A DNA stretch of 64,000 nucleotides, from the NCBI RefSeq assembly GCF_003334315.1, contig NZ_QOWR01000012.1; one strand, written 5' to 3'. Position numbers and translations under genes: made by a program. The notes beneath the pieces are model-generated. The model was not told where the DNA came from, ran no database searches, and saw nothing but the letters and a program-made list of their open reading frames with translations. The stretch is from Escherichia coli. Lineage in GTDB: Bacteria > Pseudomonadota > Gammaproteobacteria > Enterobacterales > Enterobacteriaceae. This document shows, one piece after another, positions 6,072 to 64,000 of this stretch (its first letter is position 1; each line of letters starts with the position of its first letter).

Positions 6072-6272
6072 ATACTTACTCCTCAAATCATCTTTTAATG
6101 ATAATAATTCTCATTATATTGCCGCGACGAAGCAACAGCAATGCTTACGCATAACCATAGCGAAAATAGTGGCGCAGTGTAAGGTTGTTGTGAATATTGA
6201 GTTGCAAATATGTCGGTGTTTGCTGGTGATTTGAACAATATGAGATAAAGCCCTCATGACGAGGGCGTAACA

Positions 6273-40973: not shown

Positions 40974-42214
40974 CAGGGTTTTACCCCCGTGTTTTCAGTT
41001 TCTACCCGATCCTGCGTTTCCATTGTCGGTTGTGCGGGCGGATCAACCTGCGCCAGACGTGGCGTGTGTGCCGGAAGCCAGCCAACCAGCGCCGGGAAGT
41101 GGCGTAAAAAGTGGAACGCCAGCACGCTTTTGGTCAGGTTCCACCAGGTGCGTTTGGGCAGCATGGTTTCATCCACCTGCTGACAATCTGCGGCGATAAT
41201 GCCGTTCAGATTATCGCGCAGCGTCTGGTTAAAATTACGATCGTGGATGATGACATTTGCTTCGAGATTCAGTGACAAACTGAGCGGATCGAGATTACTG
41301 GACCCTACTGTCGCCCAGTGATCGTCCATCAATGCTACTTTGCCGTGGAGCGGGCGGCGGCGGTACTCAAACACCTGAACGCCGCCTTTAACCAGATAGT
41401 TATACAGCAAGCGCGCGCCGACTCTGACAATCGGCATATCCGGTTCGCCCTGAATGATCAGTTTGATCCGCACCCCGCGGCGTGCCGCTTTACGCAAGGC
41501 GTGTAAAAATCGATAGCCGGGGAAGAAGTAGGCGTTGGCGATAATGACTTCCCGCCGCGCCTGAGTGAGCATTTTCAGATAGTGGCGTTCTATATCATCG
41601 CGGTGTTCTTCGTTATCGCGCCAGACCAGCAATACCTGCGCTTCTCCCGGCTGGCGATTTTCTTCCGCTTTGTGATGACGTCGCCACCAGCGTCGTGCCG
41701 CGCTCTGTCCAGGCAGGTTTTCCAGCTCAAACTGGAGAATATCTTCGACAATCGGCCCTTCAAGGCGTACCGCGTAATCCTGTTTAGCCTCTGGACCGTA
41801 GCTGGACATATGCTCGGCGGAGTAATTCAGCCCGCCAATAAAGGCGATACGCGCGTCGATCACCACAATTTTGCGATGCATCCGGCGAAACACATTGGTG
41901 CGCATACCAAAAAGGCGAGGGCGGGGATCGTAGTAGCGAAATACCACGCCAGCTGCCGTCAGTTCATTGACAAACTCATCGCTGAGATCCGGCGAACCGT
42001 AGCCATCCAGCAAGACTTCCGCTTTAACCCCGCGTTGCGCTGCTGCCAGTAGTGCCGCATGCAGCTGTTTGCCGACGTCATCCTCAAACCAGATAAACGT
42101 TTCAAGAATGATGCGTTCTTGTGCCTCGCCAATCGCCTTAAACACCGCGGGATAATATTGCTCGCCGTTTTCCAGCAACTCGATCTTATTGCCTTCACGC
42201 CAGCTACATTTCAT
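40973..42214 (-). CDS. clsB: Cardiolipin synthase B (phospholipase D family)
   Basis: 413-aa ORF with two HKD motifs ([16 protein letters not shown]). Confidence 0.92.
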
Positions 42215-56019: not shown

Positions 56020-56135
56020 GTAGCGTAAACGCCTGATCCGTCCAACGGTTCGGATTTTGTAGGCCTGATAAGACGCGGTAGCGTCGCATCAGGCATCTGT
56101 TGCCGGATGCGGCGTAAACGCCTTATCCGTCCTAC
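56020..56135. repeat. BIME with at least two REP elements
   Basis: gtaggcctgataagacgcggtagcgtcgcatcaggca and tgccggatgcggcgtaaacgccttatccgtcctac. Confidence 0.75.
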
Positions 56136-56138
56136 GAA

Positions 56139-56399
56139 TTACTTATAAATTACCGCAGTACCGCTTAATTTATTGTTGTTGGTGGCGGAAGTGATGCTGT
56201 ATCCACTGGCACCGGCTGCCGCGGCTTTCTCAGCCAGTTTCGCTTCCAGGGCATCGAGGGTGGATGCGCCATCGGCAGAAACCACGCCGATTTTATTCAT
56301 GTTCTGTGCCTGGGATGCCGTTACCGGTTCCGCCGCGAACACGCCAAATGACAGAGTTGAAAGAGCCATAGCAGCAACAACAGTATTGATAGTTTTCAT
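56139..56399 (-). CDS. ybiJ: Small periplasmic DUF1471 (YhcN-family) protein
   Basis: 86-aa ORF with signal peptide; paralog of mcbA. Confidence 0.88.
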   Translation of the reverse strand: MKTINTVVAAMALSTLSFGVFAAEPVTASQAQNMNKIGVVSADGASTLDALEAKLAEKAAAAGASGYSITSATNNNKLSGTAVIYK

Positions 56400-56663
56400 A
56401 ATTAATCTCTCGCAGGTGATTTTTGTATAAGTGACGTTGTTTCGTCGATGTGATGAGTATCACGTTTTTTTACGAGAGATAAAATCGAAGAGAATTGACC
56501 GCCTTGTTCAAATAAATTGATTGATATCTAACCTACTGATAAACCATTTATTTGTTGTACTTATGAACTTGTTTTATACCGCGTGGCAGTCACAGCAGCG
56601 TTAAAGGCACGGAATGACACGCAAAATACAAATTATACTCGCTATGCATCTCGCCAGTTGTAG

Positions 56664-56930
56664 TTAACGTAACTGGCTGTCTTTCGAACCTCTGCGATTA
56701 TATCCTGTATAAGCTGGTTTTTGTAAATCTTTCTCCTGCTGACAATGAATACATAAGCGCACGCCAGGAATGGCTTCCCGACGGGCCTGCGGGATGGGGG
56801 CACCGCACTCTTCACATTCATCCAAGCTTTCGCCGCGCGGAATTTCACCCCGAGCGCGGGCAATCGCATCTTCAATTGTACTGTTGATCTGTTCGTTGAC
56901 GGCGTCATCGTTAGCCCAACCGGATGCCAT
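56664..56930 (-). CDS. ybiI: DksA/TraR-family C4 zinc-finger protein
   Basis: 88-aa ORF with CxxC-N17-CxxC (CEECGAPIPQARREAIPGVRLCIHCQ). Confidence 0.88.
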   Translation of the reverse strand: MASGWANDDAVNEQINSTIEDAIARARGEIPRGESLDECEECGAPIPQARREAIPGVRLCIHCQQEKDLQKPAYTGYNRRGSKDSQLR

Positions 56931-57003
56931 ATCGACCTCCCCATATCAATACTTGTACAGTTAAGTGTAGCTAATCCAGGGACGAACTCGGGCAGTTCAA
57001 GCA

Positions 57004-57681
57004 TCAGATCTCCGACCATTCCCGCAGCAGATTATGATAAAGATTAAGCAGCGACAGGATCTCTTCACTTTCGCCGTAGCGGCTTTTCAGCGACTGAATA
57101 TTGTTGTCCAGTTCAAACAGCATGGCGCGCTTTTTATCATCGCGGATCATCGACTGGATCCACATAAATGATGCCACTCGTACGCCGCGGGTTACGGGTG
57201 TCACGCAATGCAGGCTGCTGGAGGGATACAACACGAGATCGCCTGCCGGGAGTTTTACCCGATGTTGTCCGAAGGTGTCATTAACGACCAGTTCGCCGCC
57301 GTCGTAGCTTTGTGGATCGCTTAAAAACAGCGTGGCAGAAAGGTCAGTACGCATCCAGCCGTTTTGTGGATGGCTGCGTACTGCGCCATCCACATGGAAA
57401 CCATAGGTTTCATTGTTCTGATAGCGATTAAACAGCGGCGTGGAAAGGGTACGCGGCAAGGCCGCGGCAAAGAATAAAGCATGTTGGTTAACCGCGTTCA
57501 GCACCTCATTTTGCAGGGCGGCGTATAACGTGCTGCGGGTGTCGACCTGTTGATTGTTCTTAACTTGCGCACCTTGTGCGCCGGTGGTGACGCGTCCATC
57601 CACCCATTCGGCTTGTTCCAGTTGTTCGCGAAAACGAGCGACGTCCTGTGGCGATAACACGCCGGGAATGTGGTACATCAT
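57004..57681 (-). CDS. ybiX: PKHD-type Fe(II)/2-oxoglutarate-dependent hydroxylase
   Basis: ORF trimmed to [17 protein letters not shown] (225 aa); directly downstream of fiu. Confidence 0.88.
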
Positions 57682-57722
57682 ACAATTTCTCCAAAAAGTG
57701 GGGCCTGCGCCCCACATCTGAA

Positions 57723-60005
57723 TCAGAAATGCATATTGGCTGTGAGCAAGAAGGTTCTTGGCTCGCCCGGGTGATAACGGTAGCCGCTCTTGTTGATTGA
57801 GGCGACGTAATCGGTATCAAACAGGTTGTAAACGTTTAGCTGGAAGTCGAGATTGCGATTAACTCGATACCCCAGTTTGGCATCGGCGACCCAGTAACCT
57901 TCGGTAAACGCTGGCGTTCCCACCGCGCCGTCTGAACCTTTATGCATACTGCCGATATAGCGTGCGCCCGCGCCAACAGAGATATCGTCGGTTGCCTGAT
58001 ATTGGCTCCATAAGGTGAAGGCGTGCTCCGGGGTATACGGCAGCGATGAGGAACCATCCTGGGCAACATCTTTGCCGTTTTTGATGGTTGCTTTTTGCTG
58101 GGTATAGCCGCCAATCACCTGCCACGCGGGAGTGATATTCCCGGCCACGGATATCTCATAGCCTTCGACGCGTTTCTTACCGTATTGCGAGTAAGTTCCG
58201 TCATCATTTTGCTCAACTTCATTTTCGATATCAGTGCGGAACAGCGCGGCGGTGAGCAACAGACGTTTATCCAGAACCTGCCATTTGGTGCCAATCTCGC
58301 TGGTGTTGGCTTTTTGCGGTTTAAAATCGGTGCGGTTGGCACTGTTACCGCTGCCAGACTGCGCAAGGGCGAAGTTGTTGCCGCCCGGAGGCTGCTGGGA
58401 AACGGCATAGTTAATATAGACATTGCCGTTTTCCGTCAGGTGATACAGCGCCCCGGCTTTCCAGTTCATCAGATTGCCCGACTTGGCGGTGTCGACGGTG
58501 GTGACCGGAGAACCTTTTGCCACACCAGTTGGGCAGGTGATGGCACCGCGTCCGCTGCCGCCGCAGGCGGTGGCACTGTCATATTCAGTATGATAATTAT
58601 CCAGACGGATCCCGCCGTTCAGCTCAAAATCACGGGTGATTTGCAGCGTATCAAAGGCGTAAATTGCGAAGGTATCCGTCTGACCATTGGCGTTTGCGCC
58701 GTTGCGCGTCAGGCCGCCGGGATGAATGCTGCTGTCAGGATGATAAATATTTACCGCGGGTAACGTCACCGGATTAACGCCGTAGTTAGTCTGCGTTTCA
58801 CGGGTAAATTCCACGCCGGTACTGACATCATGACCGATAGAACCGGTATAGAACGTCGAGGTCAGGTTGGTCTGGTTGGTGAGAATTTTATTACTCACAT
58901 CTTTGGTATTCGCCGTGCGTGACCAGGTCCAGCTATTCACATCGCTGGTGGGCTGAGTAATATTCGACGCCCCGCCCATAATCGCCGTCATCAGGTAATC
59001 CTGCTTTACGCGCGACCAACGGGTAGTATTGCGAATGGTGGTGTTATCGTTGATGTCGTGCTCAAAACGCATGGTGGCGGTGTCGGTGGTCGAATCGTCG
59101 TAATCGGAATCCGTGCCGTAAAAGTTATGAGTATCAACTTTTCCGGAATGATTCAGGGCCGCCGTTCCCGCAGATGGGGCAGAATAGCCCGGCAAACCGA
59201 TGGTCGGAATGCCGCCGTCTGGCGTGTTGTGCTGGGTGACATGCAGATAATTAAGATACAAACGATTCGCTGTACCAAGGCCAAAAGCGACAGAAGGGGC
59301 GACGCCGTAACGCTCATTTTTGACTTTGTCGCGTCAGGCATCGTGCGTTTTTTCGCCCATTACATTCAGGCGCACCGCGGTGGTATCACCAATGACCTGA
59401 TTGACGTCCAGCGTGCCGCGGCGGAACCAGGCGCTGCCAATACTGGCGGAGGCGTCAATGCCGGAATCATTGCGCGGCTGCTTGCTGATCATATTGATCG
59501 AGCCTGTCGGTGCGCTGCGCCCGTAGTCGGTGCCGGACGGCCCTTTAATCACTTCGACCTGCTCGGTATTGAAGGTGTCGCGCGAGACGCTGCCGATATC
59601 GCGAATGCCATCAATATAAATACTGTTAGAGGTATCGGCACCACGCATATAAATGGCGTCGCCAGTGGTGGAGTTACCGTTCTCACCCGCAAAAAACGCA
59701 CCCACGCCGGGGACGTTTTTGAGCGCGTCGGTAAGGTTGGTTGCGCCCTGATCTTTAATCACTTGTTCAGAAATTACCGTCATCGTGCGGGTAGTATCCG
59801 CTACCGGACGCGAGAATTTCGGATCGGCAGATTGTTGTGGCGCATAAAGCGAAGGCGTTGATGCTTCGACAACCAGCGTGTCATCCGCGTTAGTTTGCTC
59901 TTCGGCGGCGAGTGCCTGAGCCACAGGCGTGATGCCAATACAAAGACCGGCAAAGAACGTGAGCGAATGAAATTGTCTGGCAGGGAAATTGCGATTGTTT
60001 TCCAT
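57723..60005 (-). pseudogene. fiu: TonB-dependent catecholate siderophore receptor Fiu, interrupted by an in-frame TGA at 59334..59336
   Basis: ORFs 59334..60005 (223 aa, signal peptide and plug) and 57723..59261 (512 aa, barrel ending in the C-terminal Phe) are in the same frame; hand translation reads ...EKTHDA-stop-RDKVKNERYGVAPSVAFGLGTANRLYLNY... across the break. Confidence 0.85.
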
Positions 60006-60109
60006 TTTGCAGGTGACTTTTTCTTATATGTTGAAATTTTCACTGCCACGAGAAAGCCTCTCTGCGGATGCGATGCCACTGTTAATCCCGTGATAGTGCT
60101 CGTGAAAGT

Positions 60110-60136
60110 GATAATAATTTTGATAAGCATTATCAC
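60110..60136. promoter_or_regulatory. Fur box upstream of fiu
   Basis: gataataattttgataagcattatcac resembles the GATAATGATAATCATTATC consensus. Confidence 0.6.
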
Positions 60137-60269
60137 TTGGAGCGATTTTCTATCACCCATTGCGCGAAAAAGAAATACATTTATTTACATTGAGTTCATA
60201 TTTGATGTTTTTTGATTACAAAACAGACGAAAACTGCATCCAGAGGCGAATGCAGTTACGTTGGTGGGG

Positions 60270-60530
60270 TTATTTGTAGATGGTTGCAGTACCGAACATC
60301 TGGTCATTTCCGCCTGCGGAATTAATGACATAACCTTTCGCGCCTTGTTCGCGCGCTTTTTCTGCCAGTTTATCCTCCAGATCGCTTAGGTTTGATGCGC
60401 CAGTTGCCGAAACGGTACCGGCGGGCCGTAGCTGACCGCTGTCCAGGTTACTCATCGGTTGCGCGGCATAAGCCGTGAGAGAGATTCCGCTCAGGACGGT
60501 GGCAATCAGTAGTGTGAGGCACTTTTTCAT
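60270..60530 (-). CDS. mcbA: Small periplasmic DUF1471 (YhcN-family) protein
   Basis: ORF trimmed to MKKCLTLLIATVLSGISLTAYA (86 aa); ends GTATIYK like ybiJ (GTAVIYK). Confidence 0.85.
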   Translation of the reverse strand: MKKCLTLLIATVLSGISLTAYAAQPMSNLDSGQLRPAGTVSATGASNLSDLEDKLAEKAREQGAKGYVINSAGGNDQMFGTATIYK

Positions 60531-60805
60531 AATGACATCCTCATAAATACAACGGGTAGTGCCTGATAAGTGTAGGTCGCCTGCGCGATGCAAATGACGC
60601 AAAAAATTGACAGAGATGTGCTTATTTTTTGAACGATATATTTTTACAAAATAAGACAAATCAATGACATGCATAATGCTGATTTTTATGATGAATTGCC
60701 ATAAACCATAGCCATGTTAAGGTTTTGGGGAATGATAAACGCAGCCAGATATTTACCCTGTCGCGTTATGCGGGTATCTTACGCCGCTGCTTAAAGGAGA
60801 ATGCT

Positions 60806-61732
60806 ATGTCCGCCCAGAAACCGGGGTTGCATCCGCGCAACCGTCATCACAGCCGCTACGATCTCGCCACGCTTTGTCAGGTCAATCCTGAACTCAGGCA
60901 ATTCCTCACGCTTACACCCGCCGGGGAGCAAAGCGTAGACTTTGCCAATCCGCTGGCGGTGAAGGCGCTCAATAAGGCGTTGCTGGCCCATTTTTACGCC
61001 GTAGCGAACTGGGATATCCCCGACGGTTTTCTCTGCCCACCAGTACCGGGCCGGGCGGATTATATTCATCACCTTGCCGATTTACTGGCAGAAGCAAGCG
61101 GAACAATTCCAGCGAATGCCAGCATTCTGGATATCGGCGTTGGTGCGAACTGTATTTATCCGCTGATTGGCGTACATGAATATGGCTGGCGTTTTACCGG
61201 TAGTGAAACCAGCAGCCAGGCGTTAAGCAGTGCGCAGGCGATTATCAGTTCTAATCCGGGGCTTAACCGCGCCATTCGTCTGCGTCGGCAAAAAGAGAGT
61301 GGGGCGATTTTTAACGGCATCATCCATAAAAACGAGCAATACGACGCGACCTTGTGTAACCCGCCATTCCACGATTCCGCCGCTGCGGCACGGGCAGGTA
61401 GTGAGCGTAAACGCCGTAACCTGGGGCTGAACAAAGACGATGCACTGAACTTTGGCGGCCAGCAACAGGAGTTGTGGTGTGAAGGCGGTGAAGTCACCTT
61501 TATCAAAAAGATGATTGAAGAGAGCAAAGGCTTCGCGAAGCAGGTGATGTGGTTTACATCACTGGTATCTCGTGGTGAAAACTTACCGCCGTTGTATCGT
61601 GCCCTGACGGACGTGGGCGCGGTGAAGGTGGTTAAAAAAGAGATGGCCCAGGGGCAAAAGCAGAGTCGCTTTATTGCCTGGACCTTTATGAACGACGAGC
61701 AGCGCCGCCGTTTTGTCAATCGCCAGCGTTAA
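60806..61732 (+). CDS. rlmF: 23S rRNA m6A1618 methyltransferase
   Basis: ORF trimmed to [19 protein letters not shown] (308 aa) with NPPF methyltransferase motif. Confidence 0.9.
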
Positions 61733-63954
61733 AGCGTTGGTTCCCCCGGCGGTAACGGTTCAGCCGGGGTCGCGCCCGGAGCAGGCAGCACCTGATAAGT
61801 CTGCACTGGCGCGCGAACGCCCGCCAGGTCGAAATGTTTTTTCACCTGGCTGTCGAGGGCAAAGCGTACCGTCCACTGTTTGAGTGGCAGCGTGGTGAAC
61901 GAAACACGCAGTGTAAACGCGGTATTGCTTAAGCCGACAATCCCGGCAAAATTCGGTTCACCAATAATCAGCCCGCGAATTTCTTCGTTTTCCATTAATT
62001 CCGCTACCGCATCTTTCAGTGCCTGATTGGCTTTATCAGCATCTTCATGGCGATCAACATCATAATTTGCCACCACCGAACCAATGCCGCGGACAAAGTT
62101 AGCAAAGGTGGTTATCGAAGACCACGGAATGATGTGATACGCCCCGGTATCCTGTCGTACGCCCACGGAGCGAATCGACATCCGTTCCACTGTGCCGGTC
62201 AACGGCCCGATAGTCACCAAATCTCCAGTGTTCATGCCGTTTTCAAACTGAATAAATACCCCGGTGATAATATCTTTCACCAGCGTTTGCGAACCAAACG
62301 AGATAGCCAGACCTAATGCCCCGGCACCTGCCAGCAATGGCGCGATATTGACGCCGATTTCCGACAACACAATCATGATGGTGATGGTACTGATAATCAC
62401 CGCCAGCGCGTTACGAAACAGCGTAAGCAGGGTACGCGTGCGGGCGCTGGGTAGCGGGCGGCCATGAATATCCGAAGCCAGCCGGTTTTCGATCAAACTG
62501 GCGAGCACCGTCCAGCCAACCGCCGAGAAGAAAAGAATGAGTGCGATACGGATCAGGATATCTACGGTTTTCTGCCCCGCGCCGTTTTGCAGCCAGTTCC
62601 AGAAATCGAACAATCCCCATGCGCTCAACAGCAACATTACCGCCACGCAGACTGTCAGAATACGCGCCGTTTTCAGCGCCGCCGACAGCCAGCCATTCAA
62701 CCGTTTTTGCAGCTCCGGATAGTTACGCTGAGTATGTGGCGAGAGAGTGATGGTTTTCGCCAGCCAGCGGGAAAACATACCGGAAACAAACGCTGCGATA
62801 CCAATAATCGCCAGGCTGCGCACCGTTGCACCCATCATAAATTTCAGGCTGTTGCCCGGATCGAACAACGAAAAGAAAAACAGCACGATAAAATAGGCGC
62901 TTGCCAGCCAGTGCCACACCAGCGCAAAGGCGCGGATAAACAGGCTGAAAAAGGCCAGCGAATGCTCCGCGAAGTTGAGCAAATGCTGGGTAATCTCTTT
63001 TTTATTACGAAAGATCAGGTACAACGCCCAGACGGTCATGCACAGCATAATGATGACGTTCGCCAGCGCACCTATCTGTACATTCACCTGATTAGAGATA
63101 ATCGGCACGGCCACAATCAGGCCATAACCTATCAAACTGCTTAACCAGCTCAGGCGACGACTCCAGTAACGGGCGCTCTCGTCCTGAATCGTGAACGGGC
63201 GCAGCTCCGCCACGTTTGGGCAAAAAATCAGGCGTAGTACGGCTTTGAAAAATTCAATGAGGGCAAAGGCGTTGAGAAACAAACTTTGTTGGAAAGCGAT
63301 GGTGCGACTGCCTGCATTCAGGTTGTCGCTTAATACCTGGCCGACAAATAATGTCAGGGCCAGTAACAGCAGGTCGATAATAAACGCCCCGATAATCATC
63401 GCCGGAAGCTGCAACCAGTTGCTGCGCTCACGATTTTTTTGCCGCGCCCACTGACCCATTTTGCGATACAGCGGCAGTGCGCACAGGCGAATCAGCCAGT
63501 AAAAACCAAACACTAATACCGCTAACATTGAAAAATGGGTCAGCGCATTGCTGAAGGTTTGTGGATTAAACGGCTTATGCGGGGAGCCGGTGATATTGCG
63601 ATAAAGTTGCCCGAAGCGGGCGGAAAGGGCTTCACCATAATGGCGGCTGACTTCGGTGACCTTTTGCAGCACGGTTTGCTCTTCGACCAGCGTCGGCGGC
63701 ACTATTTTTGGTACCGGTTCAGCAGGGGGCGTAGCGGCAACGGTGCGCAACTGGTCGATCAACTCTTTACGCGAGGTGTCATTATCCAGCACATCCGCCA
63801 GTGCGCCATAGGCCGCTTTTTTTTGTTCGATATCCGGTTCCGGGGCCGGTTCAGTCGTTGAGTCCGTTGTCGTTGTGGTTGTAACGCCGGGTATGGATAC
63901 CGCGTGGGCAGGTGCGCCCAGCAGGCAGAAGAGGATGAACAGGATCCACCGCAT
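61729..63954 (-). CDS. ybiO: MscS-family mechanosensitive channel
   Basis: ORF trimmed to [18 protein letters not shown] (741 aa); signal peptide, multiple TM segments, MscS-like C-terminal domain. Confidence 0.9.
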
Positions 63955-64000
63955 GACTCCTCCAGTGAGAAAATAGAGCAAAAAGATAAGTATAGATGCT

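Follow-up and report, generated by a model that had tools for sequence, protein, structure and literature searches.

What has become of fiu, the gene for a catecholate siderophore TonB-dependent receptor, in an Escherichia coli strain in which its coding sequence is listed as two open reading frames? The question is raised by positions 57723..60005 (minus strand) of the 64-kb stretch of DNA analysed here, which we refer to as the window and in which a sequence with 99.96% identity to annotated intact fiu alleles is interrupted by one internal stop. According to the list of open reading frames and a single-frame translation, a 223-codon frame starting at the ATG at 60005 is closed by a TGA at 59336..59334, and the same frame stays open beyond it, with no further break, up to the natural TGA at 57725..57723. 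With both stops counted, fiu spans 761 codon positions, which is the length of the intact 760-residue protein. The premature TGA occupies codon 224 (59334..59336, minus strand) and is followed by a C; the surrounding codons are CAC GAT GCC TGA CGC GAC AAA, and the peptide reads MGEKTHDA up to the stop and RDKVKNERYG beyond it. The second, mechanically called frame runs from a TTG at 59261 to 57723, comprises 512 amino acids and is in frame with fiu. An earlier note on this DNA had described the two frames as one reading frame broken by this TGA alone, with a 223-residue product; the frame list and the translation bear out these statements, as well as all of its coordinates and counts.

Comparison with intact alleles reduces the lesion to one base. 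A megablast search with fiu found the gene in 5,422 of 5,426 complete E. coli genomes, and the six best-matching genomes, all with a printed identity of 100.0%, have fiu annotated as intact. We compared five fetched loci base by base, those of four best-match genomes and that of K-12. Each of the four best-match genomes differs from the window at one base, gene position 670, which is G there and T here; on the plus strand of the window this is position 59336, where intact alleles have C and the present sequence has A, turning GGA (Gly224) into TGA. The idea that the TGA is common to the six best genomes was rejected in this way, as 100.0% is a rounded figure and all four of the best-match loci that we fetched read GGA. 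The intact reference allele encodes WP_061350528.1 and shares 2,282 of its 2,283 bases with fiu in the window, and no lesion other than the GGA-to-TGA change separates the window from alleles encoding this protein. Both the single GGA-to-TGA change proposed in the earlier note and the glycine that it gave for the intact protein at the site of the stop are thereby confirmed.

The identity of the gene is equally clear. fiu lies in the mcbA-ybiX position at 99.9% identity, with the same neighbours, all of them intact. Like the intact Fiu of K-12 (b0805; structures 6BPM, 6BPN and 6BPO), it occupies the same locus with the gene order mcbA-fiu-ybiX-ybiI, has the same promoter and Fur-box region and matches over 2,281 of 2,283 bases. 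In contrast to K-12, which has GGA at codon 224, the TGA found here removes 537 residues from Gly224 onwards, comprising nearly all of the barrel. From the start of mcbA to the end of ybiX (3,527 bases), only codons 36 and 224 of fiu differ from K-12; codon 36 (59899, minus strand) is GAG (Glu) here and GGG (Gly) in K-12, a polymorphism shared with intact alleles elsewhere. The 536 codons past the stop are those of the intact allele. Because these codons, the promoter and Fur-box region and ybiX are all unchanged, with no secondary decay, the comparison indicates that the G224* lesion is recent.

The allele is also rare. A 61-mer centred on the stop had matches in 5,169 complete genomes, at 98.4% identity in 5,160 of them and lower in the other 9, and in none at 100%. 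Comparison with reference fiu alleles, which the earlier note had put forward as a check, accordingly found the same TGA in 0 of 5,169 genomes, in agreement with its suggestion that the allele is strain-specific. An exact 41-mer carrying the TGA was not found in a collection of metagenome contigs, a scan that we take to be effective because the corresponding 41-mer with GGA matched 75 contigs exactly. The exact 223-residue product is recorded once, in a Logan short-read assembly of run SRR1122540. The contig in question (8,020 bp, recorded in four samples) is identical to window positions 56110-64000 over 7,891 bases, TGA included, and may come from the window's own strain, or even from its reads. 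Since the TGA occurs in no complete genome and has this sole Logan record, we conclude from sequence comparison that fiu G224* is a nonsense allele private to one lineage.

The surroundings of fiu offer further points of comparison. Sixty K-12 coding sequences, from nadA to ybiO, were projected onto the window; all are full length, and fiu alone contains an internal stop. No second broken gene was found among these 60 genes, as might have been expected if the assembly were poor or the strain a mutator. Over its right-hand 38 kb, the window is closest to the genome of strain BL12, whose match to it begins at 25804; over positions 25804-64000 the two sequences differ by 4 substitutions and 0 indels in 38,197 bases, and the only differences other than the two sites in fiu are at 42192 (clsB) and 51079 (ybiA). 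For the first 25 kb of the window, several genomes match with bit scores that imply only a few mismatches. As separate observations, the lambda attachment region (approximately 25758-25908, ybhC/ybhB) is empty in the window, as in K-12, and BL12 has a prophage with a gtr-type O-antigen glucosylation module at the lambda attachment site. Also, ybhJ (21979-24240) shows 34 substitutions relative to K-12, along with two gaps that compensate each other; its length is unchanged, it contains no stop and five of its amino acids are different. Its divergence comes next after those of bioF, clsB and bioA among the genes of the window, and it probably reflects a patch of recombination.

The Fiu structure combines a 22-strand barrel with a plug, formed by the N-terminal part, that closes it (PMC6926462). 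When Gly224 is restored, Pfam places the Plug domain (PF07715) at residues 68-168 of the protein and the domain of the TonB-dependent barrel (PF00593) at residues 257-728, and residues 34-760 align with the Fiu chain of crystal structure 6BPM (E = 0, 1647.8 bits). As encoded, signal peptide, plug and barrel are not joined in a single polypeptide because of the stop at codon 224. The part that is still translated (59337..60005, minus strand; 223 amino acids) comprises the signal peptide, the TonB-box region, the plug and some 55 residues more, and the remaining 1.6 kb (57723..59333, minus strand), which is the same as in the intact allele and includes the mechanical 512-residue frame, is left untranslated. 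The approximately 55 residues after the plug probably represent the first few strands, far below a 22-strand barrel. The earlier note had described the product as having no beta-barrel; this is right in that the 22-strand barrel is absent, but too absolute in that, judging from the Pfam boundaries, the residues kept past the plug are the start of the barrel. The start codons that follow in the same frame (TTG 249, TTG 271 and ATG 312) lack a Shine-Dalgarno sequence, and a restart product from such an internal start would be without a signal peptide.

Taken as a whole, we consider it very probable that a coding-strand G-to-T transversion turned GGA Gly224 into TGA and that this is a genuine, recent and lineage-private nonsense mutation with the following consequences. 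Transcription of fiu under iron limitation would persist from the unchanged, presumably Fur-regulated promoter, and translation would end at 223 residues, yielding an exported fragment of signal peptide and plug that has no 22-strand barrel and is presumably degraded. The Fiu route would thereby be lost for Fe-DHBS-type monomeric catecholates, for catechol-cephalosporins and for catecholate microcins. The redundant FepA and CirA routes would stay if their genes are intact elsewhere in the genome (cirA, fepA and tonB lie outside the 64-kb window), and the phenotype expected from the loss of fiu alone is small. Published work describes Fiu as an importer of monomeric catecholates, such as DHBS, in complex with iron and as one among several redundant iron receptors (PMC6926462).

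The region upstream of fiu is that of K-12 over 265 bp, with GATAAT-type repeats over a promoter-like site. The promoter-like hexamers (GTGATA and GATAAT, separated by 16 nucleotides) lie over Fur-box-like GATAAT repeats at 60104..60156 (minus strand), identical to K-12. The best match to the 19-bp Fur consensus at this promoter (60134..60116) has 4 mismatches; there is no match with 3 or fewer mismatches at the fiu promoter, and the box is recognisable only as GATAAT repeats. Elsewhere in the window, the sole match to the 19-bp Fur-box consensus with at most 3 mismatches, where 0 are expected by chance, is at 6100-6118 (minus strand; TATAATGAGAATTATTATC), 29 nt 5' of the start of gpmA (6071). 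gpmA is Fur-regulated, which would fit this match.

fiu and the gene 3' of it, ybiX, have been described as a single Fur-regulated operon (bioRxiv 10.1101/2025.02.14.638246), and pairs of a TonB-dependent receptor and a dioxygenase are co-conserved across Proteobacteria (bioRxiv 10.1101/2024.10.16.618771). In the window, ybiX (57004..57681, minus strand), which encodes a PKHD-type 2OG/Fe(II) hydroxylase, is intact, with 100% identity to K-12 and 0 internal stops. Deleting both cirA and ybiX raises cefiderocol MICs when KPC variants are present (bioRxiv 10.1101/2025.02.14.638246). Rho-dependent polarity of the premature stop on ybiX, an effect that the earlier note had also raised, is plausible because the two genes are assigned to one operon, the stop leaves some 1.6 kb of untranslated RNA, and a C-rich, G-poor stretch that is a candidate Rho-loading site (C/G approximately 2.2; 59007..59116, minus strand) lies 220-330 nt past the stop. 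The spacer from the stop of fiu to the ATG of ybiX contains a GC-rich hairpin of 7 bp, then UUUUU and GGAGA in this order (57698..57715, minus strand), identical to K-12 and with a folding energy of -20.5 kcal/mol (z = -3.55). This element resembles an intrinsic terminator, or an attenuator, within the fiu-ybiX operon and overlaps the ribosome-binding site of ybiX. Since the wild-type hairpin and U-run already stand between the two genes, strains with an intact fiu, too, may express ybiX from the fiu promoter at an attenuated level.

fiu is also broken in other strains. Among the best 40 of the 5,422 matching genomes, 19 have an IS4 and one has an IS1 in fiu, and an even sample of 60 genomes taken down the ranking contains two with IS4 in fiu (2/60) and one with a 5' deletion (1/60). 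The IS4 insertions occur in otherwise diverse complete genomes and split a plug fragment from a barrel fragment. The 512-residue downstream frame is itself found in at least 24 contigs. That these contigs share the TGA described here was ruled out, as the ten places with this frame that we examined have different lesions upstream: +A in four assemblies, +C in three, a 4-base insertion and two deletions. In one further assembly among them, the alignment breaks between fiu gene positions 574 and 668. The +A falls in an A6 run (fiu nt 647-652, window 59354-59359), 18 nt 5' of the TGA, and the +C at fiu nt 706. These frameshifts reflect either recurrent slippage hot spots or homopolymer errors of long-read sequencing (several are NCTC records). 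Clustering at 90% groups 304 distinct plug-only fragments together. The other fiu disruptions of E. coli and Shigella (IS4, IS1, +A, +C and the 5' deletion) resemble the present allele in leaving a plug-only fragment and an untranslated barrel, several of them with the same 512-residue frame; they differ in being insertions or frameshifts elsewhere in the gene, whereas the present lesion is a base substitution that occurs in no complete genome. Collectively, these cases suggest that fiu, a redundant receptor that is also a toxin gate, has been lost repeatedly and independently, although some of the homopolymer frameshifts may be long-read errors.

Several other explanations have to be weighed against a genuine nonsense mutation. 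Were the TGA a sequencing or assembly error, the true genome would have GGA and an intact fiu, a reading that draws on the fact that a single-base change found in no other complete genome is at stake. We consider it very unlikely because the surrounding assembly is clean, with only 3 other substitutions and no indels in 38 kb relative to the nearest genome and 0 other broken genes in 64 kb, and because a second, separately built assembly, that of SRR1122540, has the same base in a contig recorded in four samples; moreover, the lesion is a substitution (a transversion) and not a homopolymer indel. The chance that the TGA is programmed, either recoded as selenocysteine or marking a functional split gene with separate plug and barrel, is close to nil, as nothing beyond an in-frame TGA and a downstream frame in the same phase speaks for it. 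Rfam families, including SECIS, have no match in 56600-60400 at E <= 1, the 71-nt segment beginning at the stop is no more stably folded than shuffled sequences (z = +0.54), and the TGA is kept in no relative (0 of 5,169 genomes); with no Rfam match and an unstable downstream RNA, selenocysteine or other recoding was ruled out. A functional split gene was set aside as well, as the 512-residue frame has neither a signal peptide nor a ribosome-binding site: a TTG-initiated frame without a Shine-Dalgarno sequence, a signal peptide or the first strands would leave its product unable to reach the outer membrane. A third alternative is a leaky stop. In bacteria, a C at +4 after UGA makes an inefficient termination context, the least efficient in E. 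coli (PMC5289835), and the stop context here is UGA-C. TGA is the leakiest stop of E. coli, read mostly as Trp and sometimes as Cys; with premature TGAs in reporters, readthrough varies between less than 1% and several percent, and values as high as 14% have been reported in K-12 under some conditions (PMC11126739). Readthrough by tRNA-Trp, or tRNA-Cys, could in principle yield a relevant amount of full-length Fiu, making the allele a knock-down and not a knock-out. This outcome appears distinctly unlikely, given that the high values were obtained in K-12, the RF2 allele of which is called inefficient (PMC11126739), and that the window, which does not include prfB, belongs to a strain other than K-12. 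In addition, Gly224 is the glycine of an A-G motif (AGRD/AGQS), a residue that does not vary among the four homologues of solved structure (Fiu, two PiuA and PiuD), and Trp or Cys at this position may be untolerated; there is no recoding-like signal downstream by Rfam or folding; and Fiu, a minor receptor to begin with, would contribute little at a few percent of its amount. As UGA-C is leaky, the allele may fall short of a complete null, and we infer that G224* is null or near-null.

A different matter is why a lineage with a genuine nonsense mutation would retain it. One reading, which we regard as unlikely, is that the allele was fixed as protection from a Fiu-dependent toxin or phage and that the four samples reflect this selection. 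Candidate agents are a catechol beta-lactam, a catecholate microcin (E492, M or H47) or a phage; Fiu admits cefiderocol and other catechol beta-lactams, and microcin E492 enters via Fiu according to work cited in PMC6926462. In addition, fiu has been broken repeatedly and independently in E. coli, and the mutation is recent and without secondary decay. Repeated loss, however, would be expected just as much of a redundant gene on which selection is relaxed, and cirA, fepA and tonB lie outside the window. The run SRR1122540, judging from its accession number, is presumably older than the clinical use of cefiderocol, which counts against selection by this drug. The effect on susceptibility is also modest: cefiderocol MICs rose 2-fold when fiu was deleted and 16-fold when cirA and fiu were deleted together (PMC5740388), and in later work the rise was 3-fold with fiu and 8-fold with cirA deleted (bioRxiv 10.1101/2025.11.06.687119). 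The present case resembles the receptor truncations of cefiderocol-resistant Enterobacterales (mostly of cirA, some of fiu) in that a catecholate TonB-dependent receptor through which cefiderocol enters has been lost; it differs from them in that clinical resistance mainly involves truncation of cirA together with beta-lactamases. The suggestion of the earlier note that the loss of fiu could be a resistance trait holds as far as Fiu is an entry route for cefiderocol, but loss of fiu alone shifts the MIC just 2-3-fold, and the 16-fold change needs cirA as well. A combined scenario, in which UGA-C acts as a condition-dependent valve of low output, with more readthrough at low temperature, at low pH or in starvation and trace amounts of Fiu(G224W/C), Rho polarity lowers ybiX, and a Fiu-dependent microcin, phage or catechol drug selects for the allele in the four-sample lineage, strikes us as highly improbable. 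By default, we read the allele as the loss of a redundant receptor that was neutral or under weak selection.

With a genuine and recent nonsense mutation as the preferred reading, the correct annotation of this locus is a single fiu pseudogene (G224*) and not two genes. The predicted consequence is that the Fiu route for monomeric catecholates is lost and that MICs of catechol cephalosporins would rise approximately 2-3-fold, with a larger effect predicted only if cirA is also defective. The allele is new, yet it represents a known kind of event in a well-understood gene and matters little beyond the annotation of this strain. For E. coli, it would be one more case of the frequent and independent loss of fiu, as expected for a receptor that is redundant in iron uptake and also serves as a gate for toxins.
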